A stretch of 39,874 bases of DNA from Deltaproteobacteria bacterium. Lineage in GTDB: Bacteria; Desulfobacterota; Dissulfuribacteria; Dissulfuribacterales; UBA3076. The DNA is taken from positions 1-39,874 of the forward strand of contig JAGGRV010000431.1 in assembly GCA_021159445.1 (NCBI GenBank), given 5' to 3'. The stretch's first letter is position 1. Each line of letters opens with the position of its first letter. The notes under the pieces are model-generated. The model worked only from the letters and a program-made list of their open reading frames with translations. It searched no databases and had not been told where the DNA came from. Positions 18,537 through 31,607 of this stretch are shown in pieces. The position numbers and the translations under genes were made by a program.

Positions 18537-18638
18537 GTTCACCGCAGAGTGCACAGAGAGCGCAAAGAGAAGATAAATAGAAAAAATTCTTTACTCTGCG
18601 GTCTCCGCGTTCTCTGTGGTAAATAGAATTGGGTGAAC
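18537..18638. repeat. Hairpin-type element with CNCAGAG-word arms after the mrp operon
   Basis: The left arm is caCCGCAGAGtgCACAGAGagCGCAAAGAG and the right arm is CTCTGCGGtCTCCGCGttCTCTGTGG. accgcagagt pairs perfectly with actctgcggt, cacagagagcgc pairs 11/12 with gcgttctctgtg, and the outer pair is gttcacc with ggtgaac. It may act as a terminator. Confidence 0.6.
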
Positions 18639-19169
18639 TGTTACAAAACCATCAAAGATGCGGGCACGGAGAGGAGAAACGGATATTTGGCTTCTATAGA
18701 ACAACTCAAAAGAATTCGACTCTTTGAAGATTTGACCGACGGCATGTTGGAACAGTTGCTTCCCCTGGCTCAAGAGCAATCGTTTGCGGAAAGGGAGATT
18801 ATTTTCGAACCAGGTAGTGAGGCCACCTACTTTTACTCACTGACCACAGGCAAGGTGTTACTCCAGGCAGAGCTTGCCTCAGCCCTTATTATTTCCCTCG
18901 GGGCCATTAAGCCGGGGTACTCGTTCGGCTGGTCTGCCCTTCTCCCCGGACCCGCCCACACTTCCCTTGCTGTTTGTATGGAACCATGCGAAATCCTGGT
19001 CATGCCCGGAGACAAATTTAAGGCCCTTCTTGATCAAGATCACACCATGGGATTCCTGGTTATGCAAAAGACTGCCACGATCCTTGAGAACCGTTTGGAA
19101 CGTCGTTCAGCACAGTTTGTCAAGGTAATAACCAAACACCCCGATATAGCAACGCTCTTGGGTTTGTAG
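18633..19169 (+). CDS. Stand-alone cyclic-nucleotide-binding domain protein (no HTH)
   Basis: The cNMP-binding fold pattern is RLFEDLTDGMLEQL...FEPGSEATYFYSLTTGKV...GYSFGWSALL. The GTG at 18633 lies inside the hairpin element. TTG 18687, which follows GAGGAG, is a plausible alternative start. Confidence 0.78.
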   Translation: MNCYKTIKDAGTERRNGYLASIEQLKRIRLFEDLTDGMLEQLLPLAQEQSFAEREIIFEPGSEATYFYSLTTGKVLLQAELASALIISLGAIKPGYSFGWSALLPGPAHTSLAVCMEPCEILVMPGDKFKALLDQDHTMGFLVMQKTATILENRLERRSAQFVKVITKHPDIATLLGL

Positions 19170-19177
19170 AAGGGGGC

Positions 19178-20704
19178 TTAGCCTTCATGTGAGTGCGGCT
19201 CAAAAGGCAGCCTGATGACAAAAGTTGACCCTTTTCCAGGTTCAGAGTCTACTTTTATGGTTCCGCCATGCTCGTGGACTGTTTTCCGGGTAATCAGCAG
19301 GCCGAGGCCCGTACCTCTTGACCCCTTGGTGCTGAATAGAGAGCTAAAGATCTGCTTTCTTACGGCCTCATCCATACCACAACCATTGTCAGAGACCTGA
19401 AGAGTAAACGCTCCATCACTTTCGCGCCTTGTGGTCACCCGCACCAGGTGTTCCTTGCCCTCGTTTTCATCAAATATAGCGGCATCAATGGCATTGGAAA
19501 CCAGGTTAAGCAGACAGCGATGAATTCCTTTGGGGTCTAAAGATGCATCGCCTATGGTTGGATCAAGATCTATGACAATCTCTACTCCGGATTCTTTTGC
19601 CTTGAGATCCATTAGGTTGCATACCTCTTCCGCAATTGAATTCGGGGAGCACTTTTCATATTCAGGCTCACGTTCCTTGGAATAGTTGAGGAGATCCATA
19701 GCCAAGCCGGAGATCCTGTCAATATTCCTTTGCACCATGTCCCAGCCGGTACGAAGTCTATGCATATCCTCTTTCTTAAGTGCGTTGTCTACTATATAGA
19801 CTCCTCCCTTAAGACCACCTAAGATGTTTTTGATACCGTGGGCAAGTCCGGCCACAGTTTCTCCAGTGGCAGCCAACCTTTCGGACTTGATCAATTCCTG
19901 CTGTAGCTGCTTGATCTCCCTCAGATCGTGGAGGAAACCCACACTGCCGATGACCTCACCATCTTGATACAGAACAGTTCCTGAAAACTTAACCGGTATC
20001 TTGTCACCGTCCTTTCCCAAAACAAAGGTCTCTCGCCAAACATGCATTTCTTGTCTTTCTGGTTCTTTGCCATGCAGACCTTGCATGATTTCTTCGGCTG
20101 TCTCTGGTGGATAGAGACTCTTTATATCAATCTTCCCTATTACCTCATCCTTGGAATATCCAAATATTCTCTCATCCCCTCGATTAAAGATCATTATTTT
20201 TCCCTGCTTATCAGTGCCGACTATACCGTCGATGGAACGCTGAATCAGATTGTCTTCAAACTCGTACCTCTGTCTTATTTCTTCCGTGGCTTGCTTAACC
20301 TTATCTTCCAAATTATCGGTATATTCCTTGAGCATCCTCCTTAAATGAAGCCTTTCCTCTGCCCGTTTTAAGGCAACCGCCAGGGCTTCGTCCACAATAG
20401 GCTTGGTGACAAAATCAGAGGCCTCAAGTTGCAGAGATTGGATAGCCACGTCCATATCGCCATGCCCGGTAACAACTATCACCTCGGTTTCAGGGCTTAT
20501 TTCCTTAATCTTTTTCAATACCTCGATGCCATCCATGCCGGGCATCTTTATATCAGTTAAGACAATTGGGGGGGCTTCTTTCTCAAATAACTCAAGGCCG
20601 CTTTTGCCGTCCTCTGCGGTCAGCACCTCGTAGCCATCAGCTCTCAGCGACATTCCCACAATTTTTCTTGCCGGCTCTTCATCATCAATAAGTAACAGCT
20701 TCAA
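19178..20704 (-). CDS. Hybrid REC-PAS-histidine kinase
   Basis: 508-aa ORF with a TTG start. An N-terminal receiver (LLIDDEE, LTDIKMPGMDG, VVTGHG) is followed by a PAS region, the H-box GLAHGIKN and the ATPase boxes NAIDA, DNGCGM and GTGLGL. Confidence 0.88.
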   Translation of the reverse strand: MKLLLIDDEEPARKIVGMSLRADGYEVLTAEDGKSGLELFEKEAPPIVLTDIKMPGMDGIEVLKKIKEISPETEVIVVTGHGDMDVAIQSLQLEASDFVTKPIVDEALAVALKRAEERLHLRRMLKEYTDNLEDKVKQATEEIRQRYEFEDNLIQRSIDGIVGTDKQGKIMIFNRGDERIFGYSKDEVIGKIDIKSLYPPETAEEIMQGLHGKEPERQEMHVWRETFVLGKDGDKIPVKFSGTVLYQDGEVIGSVGFLHDLREIKQLQQELIKSERLAATGETVAGLAHGIKNILGGLKGGVYIVDNALKKEDMHRLRTGWDMVQRNIDRISGLAMDLLNYSKEREPEYEKCSPNSIAEEVCNLMDLKAKESGVEIVIDLDPTIGDASLDPKGIHRCLLNLVSNAIDAAIFDENEGKEHLVRVTTRRESDGAFTLQVSDNGCGMDEAVRKQIFSSLFSTKGSRGTGLGLLITRKTVHEHGGTIKVDSEPGKGSTFVIRLPFEPHSHEG

Positions 20705-20741
20705 TATATTGCCCCACTGTTAGAATGTTATTTAAGCGTTT

Positions 20742-20902
20742 GCGGAACGTTGAAATTAGAAATTAGAAATTTGGCCTTCATGCTATCGTACCAGACCATA
20801 TCTGATAACTCTTCTGCCGGTTTGTAAACATCCAAATCGTAAGCTCGTTTCATCTCCTGCAAATTTCTACTTTCCAATTTCAAGTTTCAAGCCGTGAACG
20901 GC
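20742..20902. repeat. R1 element, copy a (161 nt; GAAATT-word arms plus a GCCGTGAACGGC hairpin)
   Basis: It is an inverted copy of 23878-23985. The outer roughly 45 nt and 60 nt align almost perfectly, and copy a carries about 50 extra central nt. Confidence 0.85.
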
Positions 20903-20908
20903 TACCCA

Positions 20909-22606
20909 TTATTTAGCATCTGAACATGGAGGAAATTTCAACAGAAATGTTGTACCAGTCCCTACCTCAGTCTTTACCTCTATAGTTCCACCATAATCCT
21001 TGACAATTCCATAGCTGATGGACAGACCTAATCCCGTTCCCACACCCACTTTTTTGGTGGTAAAGAATGGTTCAAATATTTTATCCAATACATTTTCGGG
21101 AATACCGTTTCCCGTATCGGATACAGAAATTGCAACCCGTCCTCTGTCTGAAAATGACTTAATTGTTACCTTACCACCTGGTTCGCCTTTTTCCTCAATG
21201 GCTTGCCGGGCATTGACAACCAGGTTTAAAAGGACCTGCTCCAACTTATTACTATCTGCCATTATATGGGGCGGGTTATCATCCAGGTCCAAATCTATCT
21301 CTATATCACGCACCTTGAACTGTTGTCCCAATATCCCAATAATATTTCTGATAGGCACATTCACATCAAGCTCTGTTGTTTTGACACCGATCCTTGAAAA
21401 ATCCCGCATATGATTGATGATTGCCGCTGCCCTGTCTACCTGACCAACAATTTGTTCAGTCACAGTTCTTAATTCTTCATCCTTAATCTTTTTGCCCTTG
21501 TCGATCATCTTTGACAGAAACGTAGCGCCCATTCTAATAACACTTAACGGTTGATTTAACTCGTGGGCTACGCCTGATGCCATCTCACCCAAGGTGGACA
21601 TCTTGCTGGCCTGAACTAACTGGGTCCTTTTTTCTAATTTCTTTATCTCTTTTTCAGAAATATCCAGTTTGGAGACCATATGTTTAAAGGAATCCGCCAA
21701 CTGGACCATCTCGTCACCCACATGGGTTTTATATACTTTGCATTCACGACACTCGTCCAGTTTTTCTGGAAAGCTCCCTGATGGCTGGCCGAAACAGAGT
21801 GTTCCGTCCACGTACCAGCACATTGTCGAAGTATTTCCATATGCAGGGCAGTCGGTTTTTGTGCATTTTTCTATCTCCCAGCATTTGACCTCTCTACCAA
21901 AATCAACCTCTGTTTTCCCACGGCTGATTTCATCGGCTAATCGCGCAAGTTGGGCAAGGGGCCGGGTAACGAATCTGGATAAGAAAATGAATAAGAAGAC
22001 ACCCACAATTACAAGGGAAGCCAGGCCCCAGACAATCTCTCTATTCCTGACTTCTGCTACTCGCTTCTCTACGGGGCCCCAGCTGATTCCTACGGTTAGG
22101 ATCCCCAATATTTCATTTTCACTTCCATGGCATTTATAACAGGTTTCCTCATTCGGGATAGGCATGGCATGGAGAAGTATCTTTTCTCCTTCCTGCACCT
22201 CTAGGTCCTTCGCCAGGGAACCGGTGCGTAATGCCTCTTCAGTGGCATGTGAATCGTCAAGCATTTTTATATTGGCTGGTAATCCACTGTATTTGATGCT
22301 GCCTGTAAGATCGCAAAGATTTACTACTCTCACGTCTGTTAATTTATACAAGCTTTCCAAGATGGCCTGTACGGCCTCCATGTCTCCGTCGAGCATAGGG
22401 TACTCAATACTTCTTAATACCGTGTCACTGATCTCATATGCCCGCTCCTCCTGCTTTCCAAAGTGATACTTAATTCGCATTACCATATCGTAGTAAGTAA
22501 GGAGGCCTATTACTACGATTAAGATCACGCCCATACCCATTATTACCTTGTCTCTTACGCTGGATATGCGTAATTTTGACCATAATCTGTCCAAAAGAGG
22601 TGTCAT
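20909..22606 (-). CDS. Sensor histidine kinase with a periplasmic CXXCH (haem c) domain and a 7-Cys module inserted in its HAMP domain
   Basis: 565-aa ORF. Order of elements: TM1, a roughly 150-aa periplasmic domain with CYKCH, TM2, HAMP helix 1 (RPLAQLARLADEISRG), a 48-aa Cys-rich insert, HAMP helix 2 (DEMVQLADSFKHMVSKL), H-box GVAHELNQPL, and ATPase boxes NARQA, DTGNGI and GTGLGLSIS. Confidence 0.88.
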   Translation of the reverse strand: MTPLLDRLWSKLRISSVRDKVIMGMGVILIVVIGLLTYYDMVMRIKYHFGKQEERAYEISDTVLRSIEYPMLDGDMEAVQAILESLYKLTDVRVVNLCDLTGSIKYSGLPANIKMLDDSHATEEALRTGSLAKDLEVQEGEKILLHAMPIPNEETCYKCHGSENEILGILTVGISWGPVEKRVAEVRNREIVWGLASLVIVGVFLFIFLSRFVTRPLAQLARLADEISRGKTEVDFGREVKCWEIEKCTKTDCPAYGNTSTMCWYVDGTLCFGQPSGSFPEKLDECRECKVYKTHVGDEMVQLADSFKHMVSKLDISEKEIKKLEKRTQLVQASKMSTLGEMASGVAHELNQPLSVIRMGATFLSKMIDKGKKIKDEELRTVTEQIVGQVDRAAAIINHMRDFSRIGVKTTELDVNVPIRNIIGILGQQFKVRDIEIDLDLDDNPPHIMADSNKLEQVLLNLVVNARQAIEEKGEPGGKVTIKSFSDRGRVAISVSDTGNGIPENVLDKIFEPFFTTKKVGVGTGLGLSISYGIVKDYGGTIEVKTEVGTGTTFLLKFPPCSDAK

Positions 22607-22665
22607 TTTACCTGTCCCTCAATTCCCCATACGCTCATACTGATGATGGCATGTAGTGCAGCGGC

Positions 22666-23106
22666 TCAATATCCCGGATGCTTGTGCCCGCTGTGACAGC
22701 TTGTACATATATTCTTTGGAATGCTCAATGTCTCTTGATGTTCCAGCCTGGTCGGAGCCTTGAGATGTAAGCTGGCCGGACCATGGCAACTTTCACACTG
22801 TTTATTGACCATCCTTGGGGTTTTTTCCACACTGACAAATCCTCCCTTTTTCCCAAAGCCGGTCGTATGGCAAGGCAGACAGTCTGGGTCATGATCTCTT
22901 TTTCTCATCTGTATGACCCGAAAATTCCTTGAGTATTTCCAGGAGAGATAGCTTTCCACATGCCCTGCGTGGCATTCTTTGCACTTGTCCATTCCAACAT
23001 AGGTGGCCTTCTCTTTTTCAGCCTGAAGATACGGTGTGTTAAAGGCAAACAAATATAAAGCAACAAGCCCGGTGGTCATGGTGATAAATAGTTTTTTCAT
23101 TTTCAT
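22666..23106 (-). CDS. Periplasmic tetrahaem c-type cytochrome (cytochrome c554-like multihaem family)
   Basis: Four CXXCH motifs are present (CKECH, CLPCH, CESCH, CTSCH) with a signal-peptide-like N-terminus MKMKKLFITMTTGLVALYLFA. ATG 23106, 7 nt after AAGGAG, is preferred to the ORF-track GTG 23133. Confidence 0.88.
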   Translation of the reverse strand: MKMKKLFITMTTGLVALYLFAFNTPYLQAEKEKATYVGMDKCKECHAGHVESYLSWKYSRNFRVIQMRKRDHDPDCLPCHTTGFGKKGGFVSVEKTPRMVNKQCESCHGPASLHLKAPTRLEHQETLSIPKNICTSCHSGHKHPGY

Positions 23107-23443
23107 CTTCAAGCTCCTTTGGCCAGAATCCACGTCGAGGATCTGAAAACAAATAGCATTTTATCCTATCGTACGAAGCATGGAGAATAAAACGGTGCTG
23201 AACTGAATAGCGCTCCATGCTATTTTGCGAACTCTATGGATATTATATAGAAGCCTGGTCCTTGGATCAACCACACCTAAGAACTTTAATCATGTATTAT
23301 ATGGAAATCTTAAGGTGAAGTAAAAACCTGCATTATTGCCATTTTGTCTTTCAAAGCGCAGCATTCTGTGCTATGTATTTGTTCAGGTAAAGAGATAGGC
23401 TTGCCTAAGGGCTTTCTCAGTAATTATAGGAGTGAGGAAGGAA

Positions 23444-23878
23444 ATGGCTAAAAAGATACTTATCGTGGACGATGAGCCTGATATTATTACCTTTATCAGC
23501 GCAGTCCTTGAAGACAACGGTTATTCAAGCATAAGTGCCAACAATGGGATTGAGGGACTTGAACTCTTGCGCAAAGAGAAGCCTGATCTGGTTTTGCTCG
23601 ATCTTATGATGCCCAAAAAAAGTGGCATTGCCATGTTTCAAGAGTTAAGATCGGATCCGGACATGAGCAATACTCCCGTGATCGTGCAGACCGGGGTCTC
23701 TGAGGTGACAGGGGTCAATTTCAGGAACTTCATGTTCAAACAACCGCTTCGGGATGAAAAGAAATTTGTCGAGAGCACGGGATTAACAAAATATACTATT
23801 CCAGACGGCTATATTGAAAAACCAATTGATCCTGTTGAGTTGATTGAAGTAATTAAGAAAGCCTTAAAAGAAACATAG
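23444..23878 (+). CDS. CheY-like single-domain response regulator
   Basis: The 144-aa product begins MAKKILIVDDEPD and contains LVLLDLMMPKKSG and IEKP. ATG 23444 follows GGAAGGAA and is preferred to GTG 23432. Confidence 0.88.
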   Translation: MAKKILIVDDEPDIITFISAVLEDNGYSSISANNGIEGLELLRKEKPDLVLLDLMMPKKSGIAMFQELRSDPDMSNTPVIVQTGVSEVTGVNFRNFMFKQPLRDEKKFVESTGLTKYTIPDGYIEKPIDPVELIEVIKKALKET

Positions 23879-24082: not shown

Positions 24083-24715
24083 TTAGTGATCTTCTACCTC
24101 TTCCTCCCAACCGGTTATCATCGTTATGATATGAGCCCAGAAGGTATGGCCCAGGGTAGCCAGATACATGTGGACAAAGAGGAAGGCAGCGAAACAGCAG
24201 GCTACCAGAAAATGTAACCCAATCACTATTTTTACCCCACCCAAAAACACCATCCATTTTTGCGTAATCAGCAGAAGCAGCAGGCCGGACAACAGGACGA
24301 TCGGTACAAGCATCGTCATGATCATCAGATATGCCCCTTTCTGCATGGGGTTGAATTTGGCATCAGGCGTGGAGTGGTGAGGGTTCGGTCCACCTTTGAA
24401 GTAGTTGAAGCCATAGAACACCATCTGTTTTATGATTCCCGTCTTCAGGTCATACATGTTGGGGACATAGAGCTTTATCAGGCTCTTATCAATAAACACG
24501 TAATATACAAACCATAACAACCAATCGATGCACACGAAAATTCCGGTAAAATCATGAACCAGTACCGCTGCTCTATAGCTGCCGAAGAAATTAATATACT
24601 CAGGAAACCTGATCTGAGCTCCTGTAATGCACAGAGTTGTTATTCCAATGGCGTGGATCCAATGCCATATCCTCACTGTAAGAGGATTGAGGTAGATCAT
24701 TTTTGGTTTTTCCAT
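24083..24715 (-). CDS. Dihaem b-type cytochrome, HydC/FdnI (Ni/Fe-hydrogenase cytochrome b) family
   Basis: 210 aa from ATG 24715, with four TM helices. Four conserved His lie in VRIWHWIHA, VLVHDF, IGLHFL and FVHMYL. The ATG is 2 nt after the stop of the upstream cytochrome c gene. Confidence 0.86.
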   Translation of the reverse strand: MEKPKMIYLNPLTVRIWHWIHAIGITTLCITGAQIRFPEYINFFGSYRAAVLVHDFTGIFVCIDWLLWFVYYVFIDKSLIKLYVPNMYDLKTGIIKQMVFYGFNYFKGGPNPHHSTPDAKFNPMQKGAYLMIMTMLVPIVLLSGLLLLLITQKWMVFLGGVKIVIGLHFLVACCFAAFLFVHMYLATLGHTFWAHIITMITGWEEEVEDH

Positions 24716-24717
24716 GA

Positions 24718-25884
24718 TCAATGTTTCCTCCTGTTTTTTTGAGTCAGAATTCTGAAAGTGCCATGGAGGCAGGCCGCGCCTAAACCACCGGCTATGATCA
24801 GCAGGCCCAAAATGCTGAGAATATCGTTTCTGGTGGAGCCCACCATGTAGAAGTCAGCAGTAGCAAAAAGAGGGTCAAGCACTGCCCCCTCTTCAACAGC
24901 GACCCTGCTGTATGTGCCATCTTGATTAGGGAAGGCTACGTAACATGTCTGCATGGCTTTGGGCCCGGCAGCGTGACAGAAAGAACAATCCCGGCGGTCT
25001 TCAAATATTCCATAACTGTGACTTGCTGTCTTTGTTGACAGCATCCCCCAGAGCCCTACACTCTTATATTTTGAGTTCATATTAAACTCTTTGAGTTCCG
25101 CCGTTGTAATGGAGCCGTCACCATTGGTATCTATGAGAGATTGAACTCCCTTGTCTCCGACTAATTGCGTGAGATCCTGGTAAGTTGCGAGGTCAATCTC
25201 ACCTTCTTTATCTGGTTTGATATCCTCTCTTTTCTCAATATACATGGTGATGACGATGCCTTTTGAATCGGTATGGCAGCTTATGCACGTAGTTGCCTGC
25301 ATGTGGAGCTTGTTCCGGAGGAGCCATTCAGAGTGGCCGGCACCTTCGTGACAATTAATACACTGTTTATTTTTTTCAAAACCTGAGGTCTCCAGGTAGC
25401 TTATTGCTGTATGGGGGCTGTGACAATCCGAGCAAACCGCATTTCCTGCATGGGGACTATTTAAATACTCTTCAACGGCCTCTTCATGGCACATACCACA
25501 ACTTTCACCAGGAGACTTGAGACCTTTGGCCGCATGGGGGTCGTGACAATCTGTGCATTCCGCATTTCCCGCATGAAGGCCCTTTGATAACTCATCAATA
25601 GTATCTTCATGGCACATGTCACAGCTTTCTTTTTCGGGCATGACACCGTCGTCCGGGTGATCATCGGTTACGTAATGGCAGGACACGCAACCATCTTCTG
25701 CGTGTTTTGTGCCGGCGAACTGGGTACCATCGATATATAAATATTCACCAACAATGGATGAATCGCCATGGCATTCCAGACAGTCATCGGTTTCCATGGC
25801 ACTCGACGAGCTGATGCCAATGCCAGCCACCAACATCATGAAACCGAAAATACAGATTATGAGAAACTTTGCTTTGAGCACCAT
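24718..25884 (-). CDS. Membrane-anchored nonahaem c-type cytochrome
   Basis: Nine CXXCH motifs were counted: CLECH, CVSCH, CDMCH, CTDCH, CGMCH, CSDCH, CINCH, CISCH and CSFCH. An N-terminal signal and a C-terminal TM (ILSILGLLIIAGGLGAACL) are present. ATG 25884 is preferred to the ORF-track GTG 25902. Confidence 0.88.
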   Translation of the reverse strand: MVLKAKFLIICIFGFMMLVAGIGISSSSAMETDDCLECHGDSSIVGEYLYIDGTQFAGTKHAEDGCVSCHYVTDDHPDDGVMPEKESCDMCHEDTIDELSKGLHAGNAECTDCHDPHAAKGLKSPGESCGMCHEEAVEEYLNSPHAGNAVCSDCHSPHTAISYLETSGFEKNKQCINCHEGAGHSEWLLRNKLHMQATTCISCHTDSKGIVITMYIEKREDIKPDKEGEIDLATYQDLTQLVGDKGVQSLIDTNGDGSITTAELKEFNMNSKYKSVGLWGMLSTKTASHSYGIFEDRRDCSFCHAAGPKAMQTCYVAFPNQDGTYSRVAVEEGAVLDPLFATADFYMVGSTRNDILSILGLLIIAGGLGAACLHGTFRILTQKNRRKH

Positions 25885-25951
25885 CCTTCCTCTCTTCCTC
25901 ACCTATAGAACTTAGAAGTTCATGTGCGAGCATACTCCAATGTCCCTTGCT

Positions 25952-26698: not shown

Positions 26699-27175
26699 AT
26701 GAGATACTTCCTTACCATTGTCACAGCAATAATAACGATCATTATCTTTTTTAATCCGGAAGAGGTTAAAGGTGGAAATAACACTGAAACACAAAAATAT
26801 GTCGGTTCAGAAGCCTGCGAGGCCTGTCACCAAAAAGAATATAGTAGTTTCATCAAATATGCAAAGAAGAGCATTTCGTTCGAGAGCATTCAAAGGGTAA
26901 AAAAGGGCCTTGCCGAGGAAGAAATCCATAAGTGCTATTTTTGCCATACAACAGGATATGGTAAACCGGGCGGCTTTGTCAGTCCTGAGGAGACCCCTCA
27001 CTTGAAGAACGCAGGCTGTGAAGTATGCCATGGCCCGGGTGAACTACATGTCAGGACGCAGCGCGTTCAGGATATCAAGATGAATCTCACAATGAAAGAT
27101 TGTGAGGAGTGTCATATTTCAGAGAGGGTCAAGGCCTTCAGGTACAAGCCCTTGATTCACGGAGGCGCGCATTAG
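26699..27175 (+). CDS. Periplasmic tetrahaem c-type cytochrome, paralogue of 22666-23106
   Basis: Four CXXCH motifs are present (CEACH, CYFCH, CEVCH, CEECH). It shares CHTTGYGKPGGF and CEVCHGPGELH blocks with the other tetrahaem protein. Confidence 0.88.
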   Translation: MRYFLTIVTAIITIIIFFNPEEVKGGNNTETQKYVGSEACEACHQKEYSSFIKYAKKSISFESIQRVKKGLAEEEIHKCYFCHTTGYGKPGGFVSPEETPHLKNAGCEVCHGPGELHVRTQRVQDIKMNLTMKDCEECHISERVKAFRYKPLIHGGAH

Positions 27176-27377: not shown

Positions 27378-30071
27378 ATGTTTGGTTTTATAAGAAAGAG
27401 TTTTGCAAACAAGATAATGGCTACTGTAATAATCAGTATAGCCCTGGTTATGGCGGCTGAAATTGTCTTGAGAATATACTTCGGGACCAAAGACAGGATG
27501 GAGTTGGTAAGAACTCTTAATTTAGACGTGTCCGGATCGATCCATTCCGGCATAACATATCCAATGCATGTTGGAGATAATAAGGCTATCGAGGGAGTCT
27601 TGTCTGATGTCCGTAAAAGGATGGGAAACATCGAGGCATGGATATGCGATTTTGATCAAGTGATAACCTGGTCCACACACGAGGAAAGGGTAAAGACCAG
27701 GGTTGCAGATTCCATTCATGATAAGGAGGCATTGAAGGCCTTAAGCAAGACGTTGAGCTCAGGAGTAACACAAGAAAAAGCATTTTTAGAAGAACTTGCT
27801 GGAAGAAAGGTCCTTATTACCATCCAGCCCATTCTGAATCAAGAAGACTGCTATCACTGCCATGGCTCTTCAAGGAAAGTTCTCGGTGGCTTGATAATAG
27901 GAACTGACGTGAAGCATGCTTACATGACGGTCGTTGCTGCCAGGAACAGGACTATAGTGATGAGTTTTATTGGAATATCGATTATCATTGCCTTAATTTA
28001 TGTGATGGTGACCAGATTCATCAGGCGTCCTGTGGAGGATTTGGCTGACAAGGCAAAGAGGTTTGCAGAAGGCGATACGTCTGTTTCGGTAGACATAAAG
28101 TCAGAGGATGAAATAGGCGTATTAGGCAACGCATTTAACTATATGGTTCAAAGGGCATCTCAATTCAGCAAAAGACTTGAAAGTGAGGTCGCCAGAAAAA
28201 CCGACCTGTTAGGCGAAAGGACCAATCTTATAGCACTATTGGAAAAAGCAAATACACAACTCAGGGAGCTTGACAAACTAAAATCTACGTTCTTGGCGAA
28301 TATGTCTCATGAGCTAAGGACACCGATGAATTCTATTATCGGATATTCAGATTTGCTAATAGACGGGGTTGACGGACCAATTAACGAGGAACAGGAAAAG
28401 AGTCTGGGCAGAATTTCCAATAATGCCAGGCACCTCTTGCAATTGTTAAATGATCTTCTCGATCTCTCCAAGATAGAAGCAGGGAAAACTGAGATAGAAG
28501 CAGAACAATTCAACCTCAAAGGGCTCATTGATTCAGTAATTCCCGTGTTTGAGGGAATGATAACCCAAAAGGGTCTTTCCCTTGATTTTGATATCGATGA
28601 GAATCTGCCTTTAGTCTATGGCGATAAGAATAAAATCAAGCATGTTTTAATGAACCTGCTGTCCAATGCGATCAAGTTTACCGATGAGGGAGGCATAACC
28701 ATCCGTGCCAGGACATCCGGTCGCGGTATTCAACCTGGCGAGTCTCCCATATTTGCAGAGGTCTGTGTAGAGGATACAGGCATCGGGATAAAGGATGAGG
28801 ACCTCGGTAAGATTTTTGACAAGTTCGTGCAGGCTGACCTTTCTACCGTCCGCCAATATGACGGGACCGGCCTGGGTCTCAGTATTGCGAGAGGGTTGAT
28901 TGCATTGCACAATGGTATGATCTGGGCCACGAGCAAGTATGGCAAGGGAAGTCAATTCTATTTCACTATTCCGCTCAAACAAGAGACACTTGAATCTTCA
29001 GCTAAGCCGGTCATAGAATTACGAGTGGCTGACGACCTGGCTGAGCACTTCGGGGTGCCTGTTGAGACCTTTCTGAAAGACCCCGAATATGAAGGCAACC
29101 CGGTAAGGTGTCACGACTACATCCATTGTGGACAGCCAAGCTGTCCGGCCTATGACAGTGAAGATAAACGTTGCTGGCTCATTCTTGGGACACATTGCTC
29201 AGGACTGAAAGTCGGTGCCTATCCGGAAAAGGTTAATTTTTGCAAGAATTGTGAGGTTATACAGAAACTGGTGCTTGAGTCACAGAAGTCAAAAATCGTT
29301 GGGTCAGAGCTATCGACCGAAGAAGGCATTACGAAAAAGACGGTCTTGGCAATAGATGACAATCCGGATGCCATTGATATTATCAGGAAATCTCTGGGAG
29401 AGGACTACAAAATAGTAGGTCTTCTCAGTGGGAAAAGGGCAGTTGAAAAGGCCATAGAGACCAGACCTGTAGCCATTACTCTGGATATAATGATGCCGAA
29501 AAAGGATGGATGGCAAGTACTGCGGGAGCTGAAGAGTACGCCAGAGACCCGGGATATCCCGGTAATTGTCCTTTCAATTGTGGATAATAAAAAACTGGGA
29601 TTCAGTCTGGGTGCTGCGGAATATATGGTAAAGCCGCTAGATAAGAATTTTCTGCTCAGAAAAATAAGAGATCTGGAAAAAACGGGTAAGATACAACGGG
29701 CACTTGTAGTAGATAGTGATACAGATACAGTATCGCTGATCGAACATGCCCTGCAAGACGTTGGGTGTGAGGTAAAGACAGCTTACAATAGCCAGGATGC
29801 AGTTAAGTTGATAAAGAGTTTCATGCCCCATCTGATCATCCTCAATCTGACAATGCCCAAGGTAAATGGTTTTGATGTAATCGAGTATATAAAAACAGAA
29901 AAAAGTGCCAAGAAGATCCCTCTTATTCTTATTACTAAGAGGGAGTTGAGTGAGAAAGAGAAAGACGCTCTAAACGGTAGGTTACGTGGTATATTAAACA
30001 AGATGGTACTTAAAGAAGAAGATCTCTCACAAGAACTCAAAGATAGAATTGATGAGATAAAGAGTGCCTGA
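27378..30071 (+). CDS. Hybrid sensor histidine kinase: periplasmic CXXCH domain, HAMP, HisKA, HATPase, 7-Cys module and two receiver domains
   Basis: 897-aa ORF. CYHCH lies at aa 158-162 between two TM helices. The HAMP is intact (RRPVEDLADKAKRFAEGD..DEIGVLGNAFNYM) and the H-box is MSHELRTPMNSI. ATPase boxes are NAIKFT, DTGIGI and GTGLGLSIA. The Cys-rich block spans aa 578-625. The two REC domains contain LAIDDNPD..LDIMMPKKDG and LVVDSDTD..LNLTMPKVNG. Confidence 0.9.
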   Translation: MFGFIRKSFANKIMATVIISIALVMAAEIVLRIYFGTKDRMELVRTLNLDVSGSIHSGITYPMHVGDNKAIEGVLSDVRKRMGNIEAWICDFDQVITWSTHEERVKTRVADSIHDKEALKALSKTLSSGVTQEKAFLEELAGRKVLITIQPILNQEDCYHCHGSSRKVLGGLIIGTDVKHAYMTVVAARNRTIVMSFIGISIIIALIYVMVTRFIRRPVEDLADKAKRFAEGDTSVSVDIKSEDEIGVLGNAFNYMVQRASQFSKRLESEVARKTDLLGERTNLIALLEKANTQLRELDKLKSTFLANMSHELRTPMNSIIGYSDLLIDGVDGPINEEQEKSLGRISNNARHLLQLLNDLLDLSKIEAGKTEIEAEQFNLKGLIDSVIPVFEGMITQKGLSLDFDIDENLPLVYGDKNKIKHVLMNLLSNAIKFTDEGGITIRARTSGRGIQPGESPIFAEVCVEDTGIGIKDEDLGKIFDKFVQADLSTVRQYDGTGLGLSIARGLIALHNGMIWATSKYGKGSQFYFTIPLKQETLESSAKPVIELRVADDLAEHFGVPVETFLKDPEYEGNPVRCHDYIHCGQPSCPAYDSEDKRCWLILGTHCSGLKVGAYPEKVNFCKNCEVIQKLVLESQKSKIVGSELSTEEGITKKTVLAIDDNPDAIDIIRKSLGEDYKIVGLLSGKRAVEKAIETRPVAITLDIMMPKKDGWQVLRELKSTPETRDIPVIVLSIVDNKKLGFSLGAAEYMVKPLDKNFLLRKIRDLEKTGKIQRALVVDSDTDTVSLIEHALQDVGCEVKTAYNSQDAVKLIKSFMPHLIILNLTMPKVNGFDVIEYIKTEKSAKKIPLILITKRELSEKEKDALNGRLRGILNKMVLKEEDLSQELKDRIDEIKSA

Positions 30072-30085
30072 CAAACGGAGATGAC

Positions 30086-30481
30086 ATGAAAGAAACAGGG
30101 AAGGTTTCCGGGAAAAAATTGCTGATAATTGATGACAACCAGGATAGCCGGGAGCTGGTAATTAAGATTTTAAGAAACCGGGATTATCAGATAATTGAAG
30201 CCGTTGATGGAGAAGATGGCCTGGAAAAGGCGAATGCTGAACAGCCGGATATTATTCTTTTGGATATCTCACTTCCGAAAATGGGGGGTTATGATGTCGC
30301 GAAAAACCTGAGGCTTCGAGAGGAGTTTAAGCATACCACGATAATTGCACTGACCGCACATGCAATGAAAGGAGATGAGGAAAAGGCTTTGCAGGCTGGA
30401 TTCAGTGGATATATTTCAAAACCGATAAATGTCCGCGAGCTGCCGGGGCAGATAGAGAAATATGTGGAAGGGGGAAGGTAG
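30086..30481 (+). CDS. Single-domain response regulator
   Basis: 131-aa ORF with LLIIDDNQD, ILLDISLPKMGG, LTAHAMKGD and SKP. Confidence 0.88.
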   Translation: MKETGKVSGKKLLIIDDNQDSRELVIKILRNRDYQIIEAVDGEDGLEKANAEQPDIILLDISLPKMGGYDVAKNLRLREEFKHTTIIALTAHAMKGDEEKALQAGFSGYISKPINVRELPGQIEKYVEGGR

Positions 30482-30533
30482 ACTGTGGAAGGTAGATTAG
30501 AGTGTATATAATAGGAGAAACGGAGATTTTTGC

Positions 30534-31607
30534 GTGGACAAAACCAAGATCCTGATTGTAGAGGATAATATCGATACAGTAGACCTATTGAGGAAGAGGC
30601 TCCGCGCTGATGGATACGATACCGCTGAGGCATACGACGGCGAAGAAGGCCTTGAAAAATTCGCTGAATACGAGCCGGATCTGGTTGTGCTGGACATTAT
30701 GATGCCTAAAATGGATGGGTTTGAGGTATGCAAGAGACTCAAGGAAGATGAAAGCACCCGCTACATACCAGTCATTATCCTAACTGCCAAGGGCGACGTT
30801 GACAGCACTGTCAAGGGTCTCGATATCGGCGGGGATGATTATCTGGCTAAACCCTTTGATTATAAAGAGCTTGTTGCAAGAATACGGTCATTGCTCAGCA
30901 TTAAAGAAGAGCGCAAGAAGTTGATGGAGGCGGAGAAGACAGAAGCATTAGAAAAAATGATGGATCAAGTGGCGCATGAGATTAGGAACCCTCTTGTTGC
31001 TATAGGAGGGTTTGCGCGAAGGATCTGTGAATCCCTTTCTGAGAATGATCCAAACAGAAAATATTTGAAATTAATTGTACAAAATGTTGAGACCCTGGAA
31101 CATATGATAAAAAAGCTCATTGAGCTGAAAACCACTGTAATATCTTATAGAGAGCCGGCGGATATTAATGAGATTATTGCCGAAGCGATCGAAAAATGCA
31201 GACCTGCACTTGAAGAAAATCACATAGATATCAAAACCGAATTAATAAAAAATCTTCCTGATATTTCTGTTGATAGAGAACAGATTAAGGCGGTATTTGC
31301 CAATCTTATTGAAAATGCAATTGAAGCAATGAGAAATGAGACACGCATACTGAAAATTGGCAGCCGTGTCAGCGAGGGATATATTGAAATCAAGGTATCC
31401 GATACAGGGGTCGGTATCCCAAAAGACAAACTCAAGCATGTTCTGGACCCTTTTTTTACCTCAAAGATCCACGCAGGGCTCGGTCTTACCTATGCACTCA
31501 AGATCATTCAGGCCCACAGGGGCACGATCTCAGTGGAAAGCGAACTAGGCAAGGGATCCACCTTTACGATTAGATTACCTGTGAAGAGACACGGCAGCAG
31601 CCATTAA
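30534..31607 (+). CDS. Hybrid REC-histidine kinase
   Basis: 357-aa ORF with a GTG start. The receiver contains ILIVEDN and VVLDIMMPKMDG. The H-box is QVAHEIRNPL and the ATPase boxes are NAIEA, DTGVGI and GLGLTYA. Confidence 0.85.
   Translation: MDKTKILIVEDNIDTVDLLRKRLRADGYDTAEAYDGEEGLEKFAEYEPDLVVLDIMMPKMDGFEVCKRLKEDESTRYIPVIILTAKGDVDSTVKGLDIGGDDYLAKPFDYKELVARIRSLLSIKEERKKLMEAEKTEALEKMMDQVAHEIRNPLVAIGGFARRICESLSENDPNRKYLKLIVQNVETLEHMIKKLIELKTTVISYREPADINEIIAEAIEKCRPALEENHIDIKTELIKNLPDISVDREQIKAVFANLIENAIEAMRNETRILKIGSRVSEGYIEIKVSDTGVGIPKDKLKHVLDPFFTSKIHAGLGLTYALKIIQAHRGTISVESELGKGSTFTIRLPVKRHGSSH

Follow-up and report, generated by a model that had tools for sequence, protein, structure and literature searches.

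A HAMP domain split by a seven-cysteine two-CW module: a conserved composite in sensor kinases of sediment bacteria

What does a seven-cysteine module do inside a HAMP domain, and why does a second copy of it sit elsewhere in a paralogous protein encoded nearby? The question is raised by a stretch of 39,874 nucleotides from a Deltaproteobacteria bacterium (GTDB lineage Desulfobacterota; Dissulfuribacteria; Dissulfuribacterales; UBA3076), which is contig JAGGRV010000431.1 of GenBank assembly GCA_021159445.1, positions 1 to 39,874, and which we refer to as the window. It encodes K1, a transmembrane sensor histidine kinase of 565 aa (open reading frame 20909..22606, minus strand), and K2, a paralogous hybrid kinase of 897 aa (27378..30071, plus strand). 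K1 consists of a haem-c periplasmic sensor, a second transmembrane helix (TM2), a HAMP domain that encloses a Cys-rich module of the two-CW type (HAMP::two-CW), HisKA and HATPase_c. HAMP domains, with their helices AS1 and AS2 joined by a connector, are the commonest bacterial relay between membrane sensing and cytoplasmic output; the way they switch is debated, and they are usually seen as passive two-helix converters. Taken jointly, our results are best read as a conserved HAMP::two-CW composite in which a metal-centred module would add a cytoplasmic input at AS2, a reading to which we assign a probability of roughly 0.55.

As judged from profile matches, the HAMP domain of K1 is genuine and is split at the connector/AS2 junction, with AS1, a Gly-led connector and AS2 otherwise intact. 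When K1 is left intact, the Pfam HAMP model matches over profile positions 1–24 of 53 only (residues 208–235, 29 bits, cut-off 25); when residues 241–293 are removed, the match covers profile positions 6–51 and scores 34.4 bits. A profile of K1-type segments compared with the solved HAMP domain of Af1503 (4gn0_A, E = 0.0035) gave two aligned stretches, profile 4–36 with chain residues 41–73 and profile 89–122 with chain residues 69–102; the two stretches are contiguous in the chain, and the profile positions 37–88 between them are the module. On the DNA (all K1 features are on the minus strand), TM2 corresponds to the hydrophobic stretch IVWGLASLVIVGVFLFIFLSRF (residues ~191–212, 21971..22036) and runs into AS1, which together with the N-terminal part of the connector spans residues 208–240 (FLSRFVTRPLAQLARLADEISRGKTEVDFGREV, 21887..21985, by the Pfam HAMP and Af1503 matches). 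The inserted unit (residues 241–293, 21728–21886) adds K241 and KVYK to the module proper, which we count from first to last Cys (residues 242–289, 21740..21883), and it is followed by AS2 (residues 294–314, THVGDEMVQLADSFKHMVSKL, 21665..21727), delimited by the Pfam match of the excised construct and by Af1503. The start of the connector at G229 (GKTEVDFGREV) is intact and its conserved Gly is kept; the insert comes at the far, C-terminal end of the connector, with 8 residues left before the "DE" at which AS2 starts. Once the insert is excised, the K1 connector has 14 residues, compared with 11–12 in K2 and Af1503, and the arrangement is close to a pure insertion.

This behavior is shared by other proteins in which the module is nested in a HAMP domain behind a transmembrane helix (the TM-HAMP-nested class): 10 of 10 representatives had half-domain HAMP matches only when intact, and five of five diverse representatives gave a full-length Pfam HAMP match (32–45 bits) after excision. 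Could the flanking helices nevertheless be a generic coiled-coil linker, so that nothing has been inserted into a HAMP domain? The half-length Pfam match of intact K1 speaks for such an explanation, as does a Foldseek search with the structural model discussed below, which returned no HAMP structures. We consider it very improbable and, at the sequence level, effectively refuted: excised K1 matches HAMP nearly end to end and above the Pfam cut-off, the five other representatives do likewise, the Af1503 HAMP aligns contiguously to both flanks, and the segment stands directly after TM2, carries the Pro, Gly and DE..L..F..M landmarks and aligns with the canonical HAMP of K2. The original prediction had placed the module inside the inter-helix connector of a HAMP domain. 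Its identification of the flanking helices as HAMP rather than simple coiled coil is confirmed by the excised Pfam match and the Af1503 alignment, and the nesting in HAMP stands; the site, however, is the connector/AS2 junction and not the middle of the connector.

Turning to the module itself, the window segment 21740–21883 translates exactly to K1 residues 242–289, CWEIEKCTKTDCPAYGNTSTMCWYVDGTLCFGQPSGSFPEKLDECREC (CWEIEKC...CREC), a stretch of 48 aa with seven Cys. The K2 copy (residues 578–625, 29109..29252, plus strand) has the same Cys spacing, C-x5-C-x4-C-x9-C-x7-C-x14-C-x2-C, and a six-frame pattern scan of the window found these two copies and no third. The NCBIfam model NF045718 ("two_CW_domain") matches the K1 module with 44.9 bits (E = 1.1e-11), above its 35-bit cut-off; in the K1 module the seven Cys and the two CW motifs are all present. 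The K2 module differs in that it misses the cut-off (28.8 bits, E = 1.2e-6) and has CH in place of the first CW motif, followed by the second CW. We retain it as a homolog despite this score because the Cys spacing is identical, because the two modules align with E = 5e-13 in pairwise BLASTP (36% identity over 59 aa, 21 identical columns), and because K2-type proteins rank high in the profile search, with K2-type cluster representatives among the top matches of the module profile. By these comparisons the K1 and K2 modules are homologous, rather than two instances of a chance Cys pattern. The seven Cys and the Trp of the second CW motif (W263 in K1) are invariant in 136 diverse modules, K1 and K2 included, and one Pro, one Thr and one Lys in these modules come close to invariance. 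The original prediction was thus right that the module and its paralogous copy are real, homologous and located where it had placed them; what it treated as an anonymous Cys block is the catalogued family NF045718.

Pfam has no model that matches the module, even at E <= 10, and in a sequence and profile search of the PDB no chain matched it, the HAMP flanks alone finding matches. An exhaustive profile search seeded with the two copies from the window returned 1247 clusters (50% identity) at E <= 1e-3, of which 293 were found at E <= 1e-10. Our literature search for the two-CW domain or NF045718 yielded no paper, function, cofactor or structure. The two-CW domain is therefore a catalogued yet uncharacterised signalling domain, with more than 1000 clusters at 50% identity.

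K2 shows what the HAMP domain looks like without the module. Its domain order is haem-c sensor, contiguous HAMP, HisKA (75.9 bits), HATPase_c (94.8 bits), two-CW, REC and REC. The HAMP match (residues 211–260, 28008..28157, plus strand) covers profile positions 2–51 of 53 with 50.9 bits, in agreement with the original prediction of a contiguous domain. The module lies in the linker between HATPase_c (residues 415–534, 28620–28979) and the first REC domain, which begins at about residue 653 (~29334). K1 and K2 are 26% identical over the span from the sensor to the ATPase domain; in the BLASTP alignment the sensor, TM2 and AS1 are collinear, and the alignment breaks down where the module starts. 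The module therefore does occupy two topologically different points in the two kinases, nested in HAMP in K1 and in the HATPase_c–REC linker in K2. Ahead of the K2 module is a stretch of about 30 residues (residues 545–577, 29010–29108) of the form ..AE.F..P...FL..PEY.G.., which is similar in other K2-type proteins as judged by eye from the flanks of the proteins listed (P0128–P0133 and P0137). No family matches this stretch, which may extend the domain specifically in the K2-type context.

How widespread is the K1 arrangement? A search with full-length K1 found 1438 proteins at E <= 1e-10, and among the matches listed the module is at the same place in all 120 full-length relatives (46–91% identity), flanked by RPL..L..LADEISRG..FGR..K before and HVGDEMVQLADSFKHM after; some of these relatives have an extra PAS domain. 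A word-indexed homolog search with the 131-aa HAMP-plus-module segment returned 2 fragments only. When the species-representative genomes of GTDB, one for each species, were scanned, 98 loci were found to encode a relative of this segment, a set biased to K1-like sequences by the use of a K1-family alignment; details were taken from 80 of the 98 loci. All 80 are in metagenome-assembled genomes (MAGs), many of them named Desulfobacterota or Thermodesulfobacteriota and a few Acidobacteriota or Myxococcota, and the closest are from UBA3076 (96%) and two Seep-SRB2 MAGs (95% and 90%). Across 10 representatives, HAMP::two-CW is joined to sensors of the Mcp40H-20 (haem-c), sCache_3_2 and dCache_3 families, and its outputs are HisKA/HATPase with or without REC, MCPsignal and HD_5 (an HD domain of the HD-GYP type). 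In 30 of 32 HAMP-nested representatives the last Cys and DE are spaced by 8 residues, and in 29 of the 32 the connector Gly and the first Cys are spaced by 12–14. Since the site is fixed and both sensors and outputs vary, the sequences point to one conserved composite that is shuffled as a unit. The HAMP::two-CW design is common to over a hundred sediment-bacterial lineages, mainly Desulfobacterota and other sediment MAGs.

To place this composite among the other contexts of the module, the top 150 cluster representatives were sorted by their flanking sequences. About 32 are TM-HAMP-nested as in K1, about 30 are soluble proteins with a helix–module–helix layout and an AS2-like helix of the form LGE.FN.M, 29 have the module at the extreme N-terminus, about 7 have it after HATPase_c as in K2 and 4–5 have it nested in CheW; the rest are other contexts, including further soluble helix–module–helix variants. 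The TM-HAMP-nested arrangement thus accounts for about a fifth to a quarter of the sampled two-CW clusters. The original prediction had spoken of an unusual way to integrate two inputs; the HAMP-inserted form is in fact among the commonest contexts, and the K2-type layout is the rarer one. In 95 representatives the Pfam families that co-occur most often with the module are signalling domains: HATPase_c (43), HisKA (32), PAS_9 (27), HAMP (24), REC (13), GGDEF (11), MCPsignal (4), HD (4) and CheW (4). The CheW cases repeat the K1 situation in a different host: the intact proteins match CheW in two pieces, after excision the match is a single piece over profile positions 1–137 of 138, and the insertion falls at about profile position 76 (P0260, P0204, P0153 and P0167, the last two with an additional N-terminal PAS domain). 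By these matches the module behaves as an insert cassette that is nested also in a second, unrelated host domain; such nesting in both HAMP and CheW implies that the termini of the module would be adjacent.

The soluble helix–module–helix proteins call for caution. In a comparison with hhalign this class aligned with the HAMP-nested class at 97% probability, and a control with swapped halves attributed most of the score to the AS2-like helix alone; Pfam calls HAMP in the flanks of none of five representatives. The idea that every helix–module–helix context is a diverged HAMP domain is unsupported on both counts, and we limit ourselves to saying that in this class the helix after the module is clearly similar in sequence to AS2.

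Some proteins contain two two-CW modules (P0123, P0124, P0136, P0125, P0126 and P0139), arranged either as tandem helix–module–helix units before a kinase or GGDEF domain or as two C-terminal copies. In P0125 the two C-terminal modules follow an MCP signalling domain, and a CZB zinc-binding domain is present too; the second module of P0139 is longer, some 20 residues being inserted after its fifth Cys and ahead of its sixth.

Structure prediction with AlphaFold2 depended on the alignment supplied. Forty-two close homologs gave a pLDDT of 56, and a mixed alignment of 136 rows, made up of K1-type and other HAMP-nested segments together with module-only rows, gave a monomer model with a mean pLDDT of 89.3 (90–95 in the module) and a pTM of 0.75. 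In this model TM2 and AS1 form a single helix, followed by the connector as coil, the module, a short helix (KVYKTH) and a long helix comprising AS2 and beyond. Regular secondary structure is sparse in the module, which shows just short helices and one small hairpin. The predicted monomer is consistent with a mini-domain of the metal-knot type that protrudes between AS1 and AS2.

On the input side, the sensors of K1 and K2 are, by their family matches, predicted haem-c periplasmic domains. Both match PF21563 (Mcp40H-20_sensor, cut-off 27), K1 with 36.6 bits (residues 63–173, 22088..22420) and K2 with 36.0 bits, and both have a CxxCH motif between two transmembrane helices: CYKCH in K1 (residues 156–160, 22127–22141) and CYHCH in K2 (residues 158–162). 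Since the CxxCH sensor is periplasmic and lies between the two transmembrane segments of K1, the two-CW module should be cytoplasmic. On the output side, both kinases have the phospho-acceptor dimerisation domain and the GHKL ATPase domain (Pfam HisKA and HATPase_c), which in K1 span residues 339–406 (21389..21592, 47.4 bits) and 451–559 (20930..21256, 90 bits), respectively.

K1 belongs to a three-gene cassette on the minus strand (19178–23133), in which a tetrahaem cytochrome c of 155 aa with 4 CxxCH motifs (Pfam Cytochrome_C554, 22666..23133) is directly upstream of K1 and a REC-PAS-HATPase_c hybrid kinase (19178..20704, Pfam) is directly downstream. The same order of tetrahaem cytochrome c, K1-type kinase and REC-PAS-HATPase kinase recurs in related loci (L001–L033 and L042); the cytochrome is present in 29 of the 80 loci, mostly directly upstream and on the same strand, and the REC-PAS-HATPase kinase follows the K1-type gene in most of the close loci. 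K2 too is directly preceded by a tetrahaem cytochrome c of the Cytochrome_C554 family (158 aa, 26699..27175, plus strand), 38% identical to the K1-linked one (E = 5e-23). With paralogous cytochromes before both kinases, the cytochrome-plus-kinase pair appears from these alignments to have been duplicated as a unit. Carriers of the cassette include Seep-SRB2 MAGs and Eth-SRB1; for Ca. Desulfofervidus auxilii the finding is that of a K1-type kinase. All three are syntrophic partners of alkane-oxidising archaea.

Between the K1 and K2 cassettes are genes for a cytochrome with 9 CxxCH motifs, a cytochrome b561-type protein and a receiver. The first two overlap (24083–25902, minus strand) and encode a 394-aa multihaem cytochrome c and a membrane protein with a Ni_hydr_CYTB domain, a pair that, by its domains, looks like a membrane electron-transfer module. 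Signalling genes are dense in this neighbourhood: those on the plus strand (18633–19169, 23432–23878 and 30086–31607) encode a protein with a cNMP-binding domain, a REC-HisKA-HATPase kinase and two receivers that stand alone. As a whole the neighbourhood looks like a redox-signalling island.

How could the module work at this site? In the HAMP::two-CW composite as we read it, the module would be a compact domain in the cytoplasm, stabilised by a metal centre, Zn or Fe-S (iron–sulphur), with N- and C-termini close enough to let it plug into loops. A change in the state of this centre, by redox or by binding of O2, NO or a metal, would alter the geometry or rigidity of the module, and, through the covalent link between the module and the first turn of AS2, would bias the on/off equilibrium of the HAMP domain. 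Ahead of its kinase core, at the HAMP relay, K1 would then merge two signals, a cytoplasmic one and a periplasmic redox signal that comes from the c-haem sensor and the tetrahaem cytochrome encoded beside it. That the state of a metal or of redox should act on AS2 as a second input is plausible, and so is the idea of the original prediction that a ligand- or redox-dependent change in the module would gate signalling. The seven invariant Cys, the C-P motif, the small size (48 aa) and coil-rich nature of the domain and its apparently mostly anoxic-habitat hosts incline us to Fe-S, as a leaning and not as evidence. Going further, one may tentatively propose that two-CW is a new class of cofactor-bearing plug-in, likely with an Fe-S centre that responds to redox, O2 or NO, which would be spliced into functionally sensitive loops of its hosts, in HAMP at the connector/AS2 junction and in CheW where the two profile halves meet, and would pass the state of its centre on to them mechanically; K1 and its relatives would then represent the first natural HAMP domain with a built-in sensor.

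Several observations weigh against a sensory role exerted through HAMP. The seven invariant Cys are equally consistent with a purely structural zinc site, and the "anaerobe" distribution is taken from MAG names. The module is not joined to a HAMP domain in K2 or in the N-terminal class, so its role cannot depend on HAMP alone; the flanks of the soluble helix–module–helix class are not called HAMP by Pfam; and Foldseek with the predicted model found no match in the PDB (best E = 5.2), neither to its HAMP part nor to the module.

The chief competing explanation, which we regard as rather unlikely though it deserves serious attention, is that the module is a constitutive, non-sensing zinc knot whose surface, next to the membrane-proximal end of HAMP, would be used for docking or clustering. 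The co-encoded REC-PAS kinase, the receivers or other receptors would be possible partners, and the module would be an interaction adaptor likewise in CheW and K2. An invariant Cys pattern in a compact, coil-rich fold is typical of structural Zn modules, and a docking role accounts equally well for the module in places from which it could not act on HAMP (the K2 linker, the N-terminal class and CheW); the co-occurrence with many partner-dependent signalling proteins and the presence of K1 in a conserved cassette with a second kinase fit it too. On the other hand, in soluble kinases and GGDEF proteins the module is often where an input domain usually is (29 of 150 in the N-terminal class), within HAMP the module keeps to a strictly fixed place beside AS2, a signalling-critical helix, and the proposed surface is without a known partner. 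A minor variant of the sensory scheme dispenses with the metal: oxidant-driven, reversible disulfides among the seven Cys would strain the connector/AS2 junction and thereby regulate HAMP. Seven invariant Cys in a cytoplasmic domain and the redox-related genomic context agree with such a thiol switch, but the invariant Cys are odd in number and come with a C-P motif and a CxxC pair, in a domain of about 50 aa that has hardly any regular secondary structure; these features agree better with metal ligation, and we find the variant improbable.

Comparison with known systems helps to define what is new in the composite. With canonical HAMP domains (PF00672; Af1503, Tsr, NarQ) K1 shares an AS1 with Pro after TM2, a Gly-led connector, an AS2 with DE..L..F..M and the position between membrane and kinase core; it differs by the 53-residue, independently folding domain nested at the connector/AS2 junction. 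In the literature that we searched there was no description of a domain nested in the HAMP connector, of Cys-rich inserts or of Fe-S together with HAMP. The activity of the kinases NreB and AirS is controlled by O2 or redox state through cytoplasmic Fe-S clusters with Cys ligands; this would be chemistry of the kind proposed for the two-CW module by analogy, although these clusters are in N-terminal PAS-type domains and have four Cys, whereas the K1 module has seven and is nested in HAMP, and no relationship in sequence was detected. The nearest functional precedent is Aer of E. coli, whose FAD-PAS redox sensor signals laterally to HAMP (PMC13232288). There, as by analogy we propose for K1, a cytoplasmic redox module acts directly on the HAMP domain of a membrane receptor and bypasses the transmembrane helices. 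Aer is no relative of K1, however: its PAS domain is separate, N-terminal and in non-covalent contact with HAMP, whereas the K1 module is covalently nested and unrelated to PAS, and K1 additionally keeps a periplasmic sensor. For that sensor, the counterparts are Geobacter GSU0582 and GSU0935, chemoreceptors with haem-c periplasmic sensors (PMC3460858). K1 and K2 share with them the Mcp40H-20_sensor domain with a single CxxCH; the Geobacter proteins are chemoreceptors, whereas the K1 sensor is joined to HAMP::two-CW and a kinase output. No Cys-rich module is mentioned in the literature that we consulted on GSU0582 and GSU0935, a comparison of descriptions and not of sequences.

Each part of the composite protein (kinase, HAMP, haem sensor, two-CW model) is known already; what is new is a conserved HAMP domain with a built-in, uncharacterised Cys7 domain. 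If the composite works as we suggest, HAMP itself can be an input site, AS2 could be perturbed from a defined point, which would provide an experimental handle, and nature would offer a template for engineering two-input receptors by domain insertion. Carriers of two-CW include many Desulfobacterota, some of them syntrophic partners of alkane-oxidising archaea, in which the module occurs beside multihaem cytochromes. If the tentative proposal of a cofactor-bearing plug-in is true as well, syntrophs of the Seep-SRB2 type would couple the periplasmic redox state, read through cytochrome and haem, and the cytoplasmic redox state in a single receptor.

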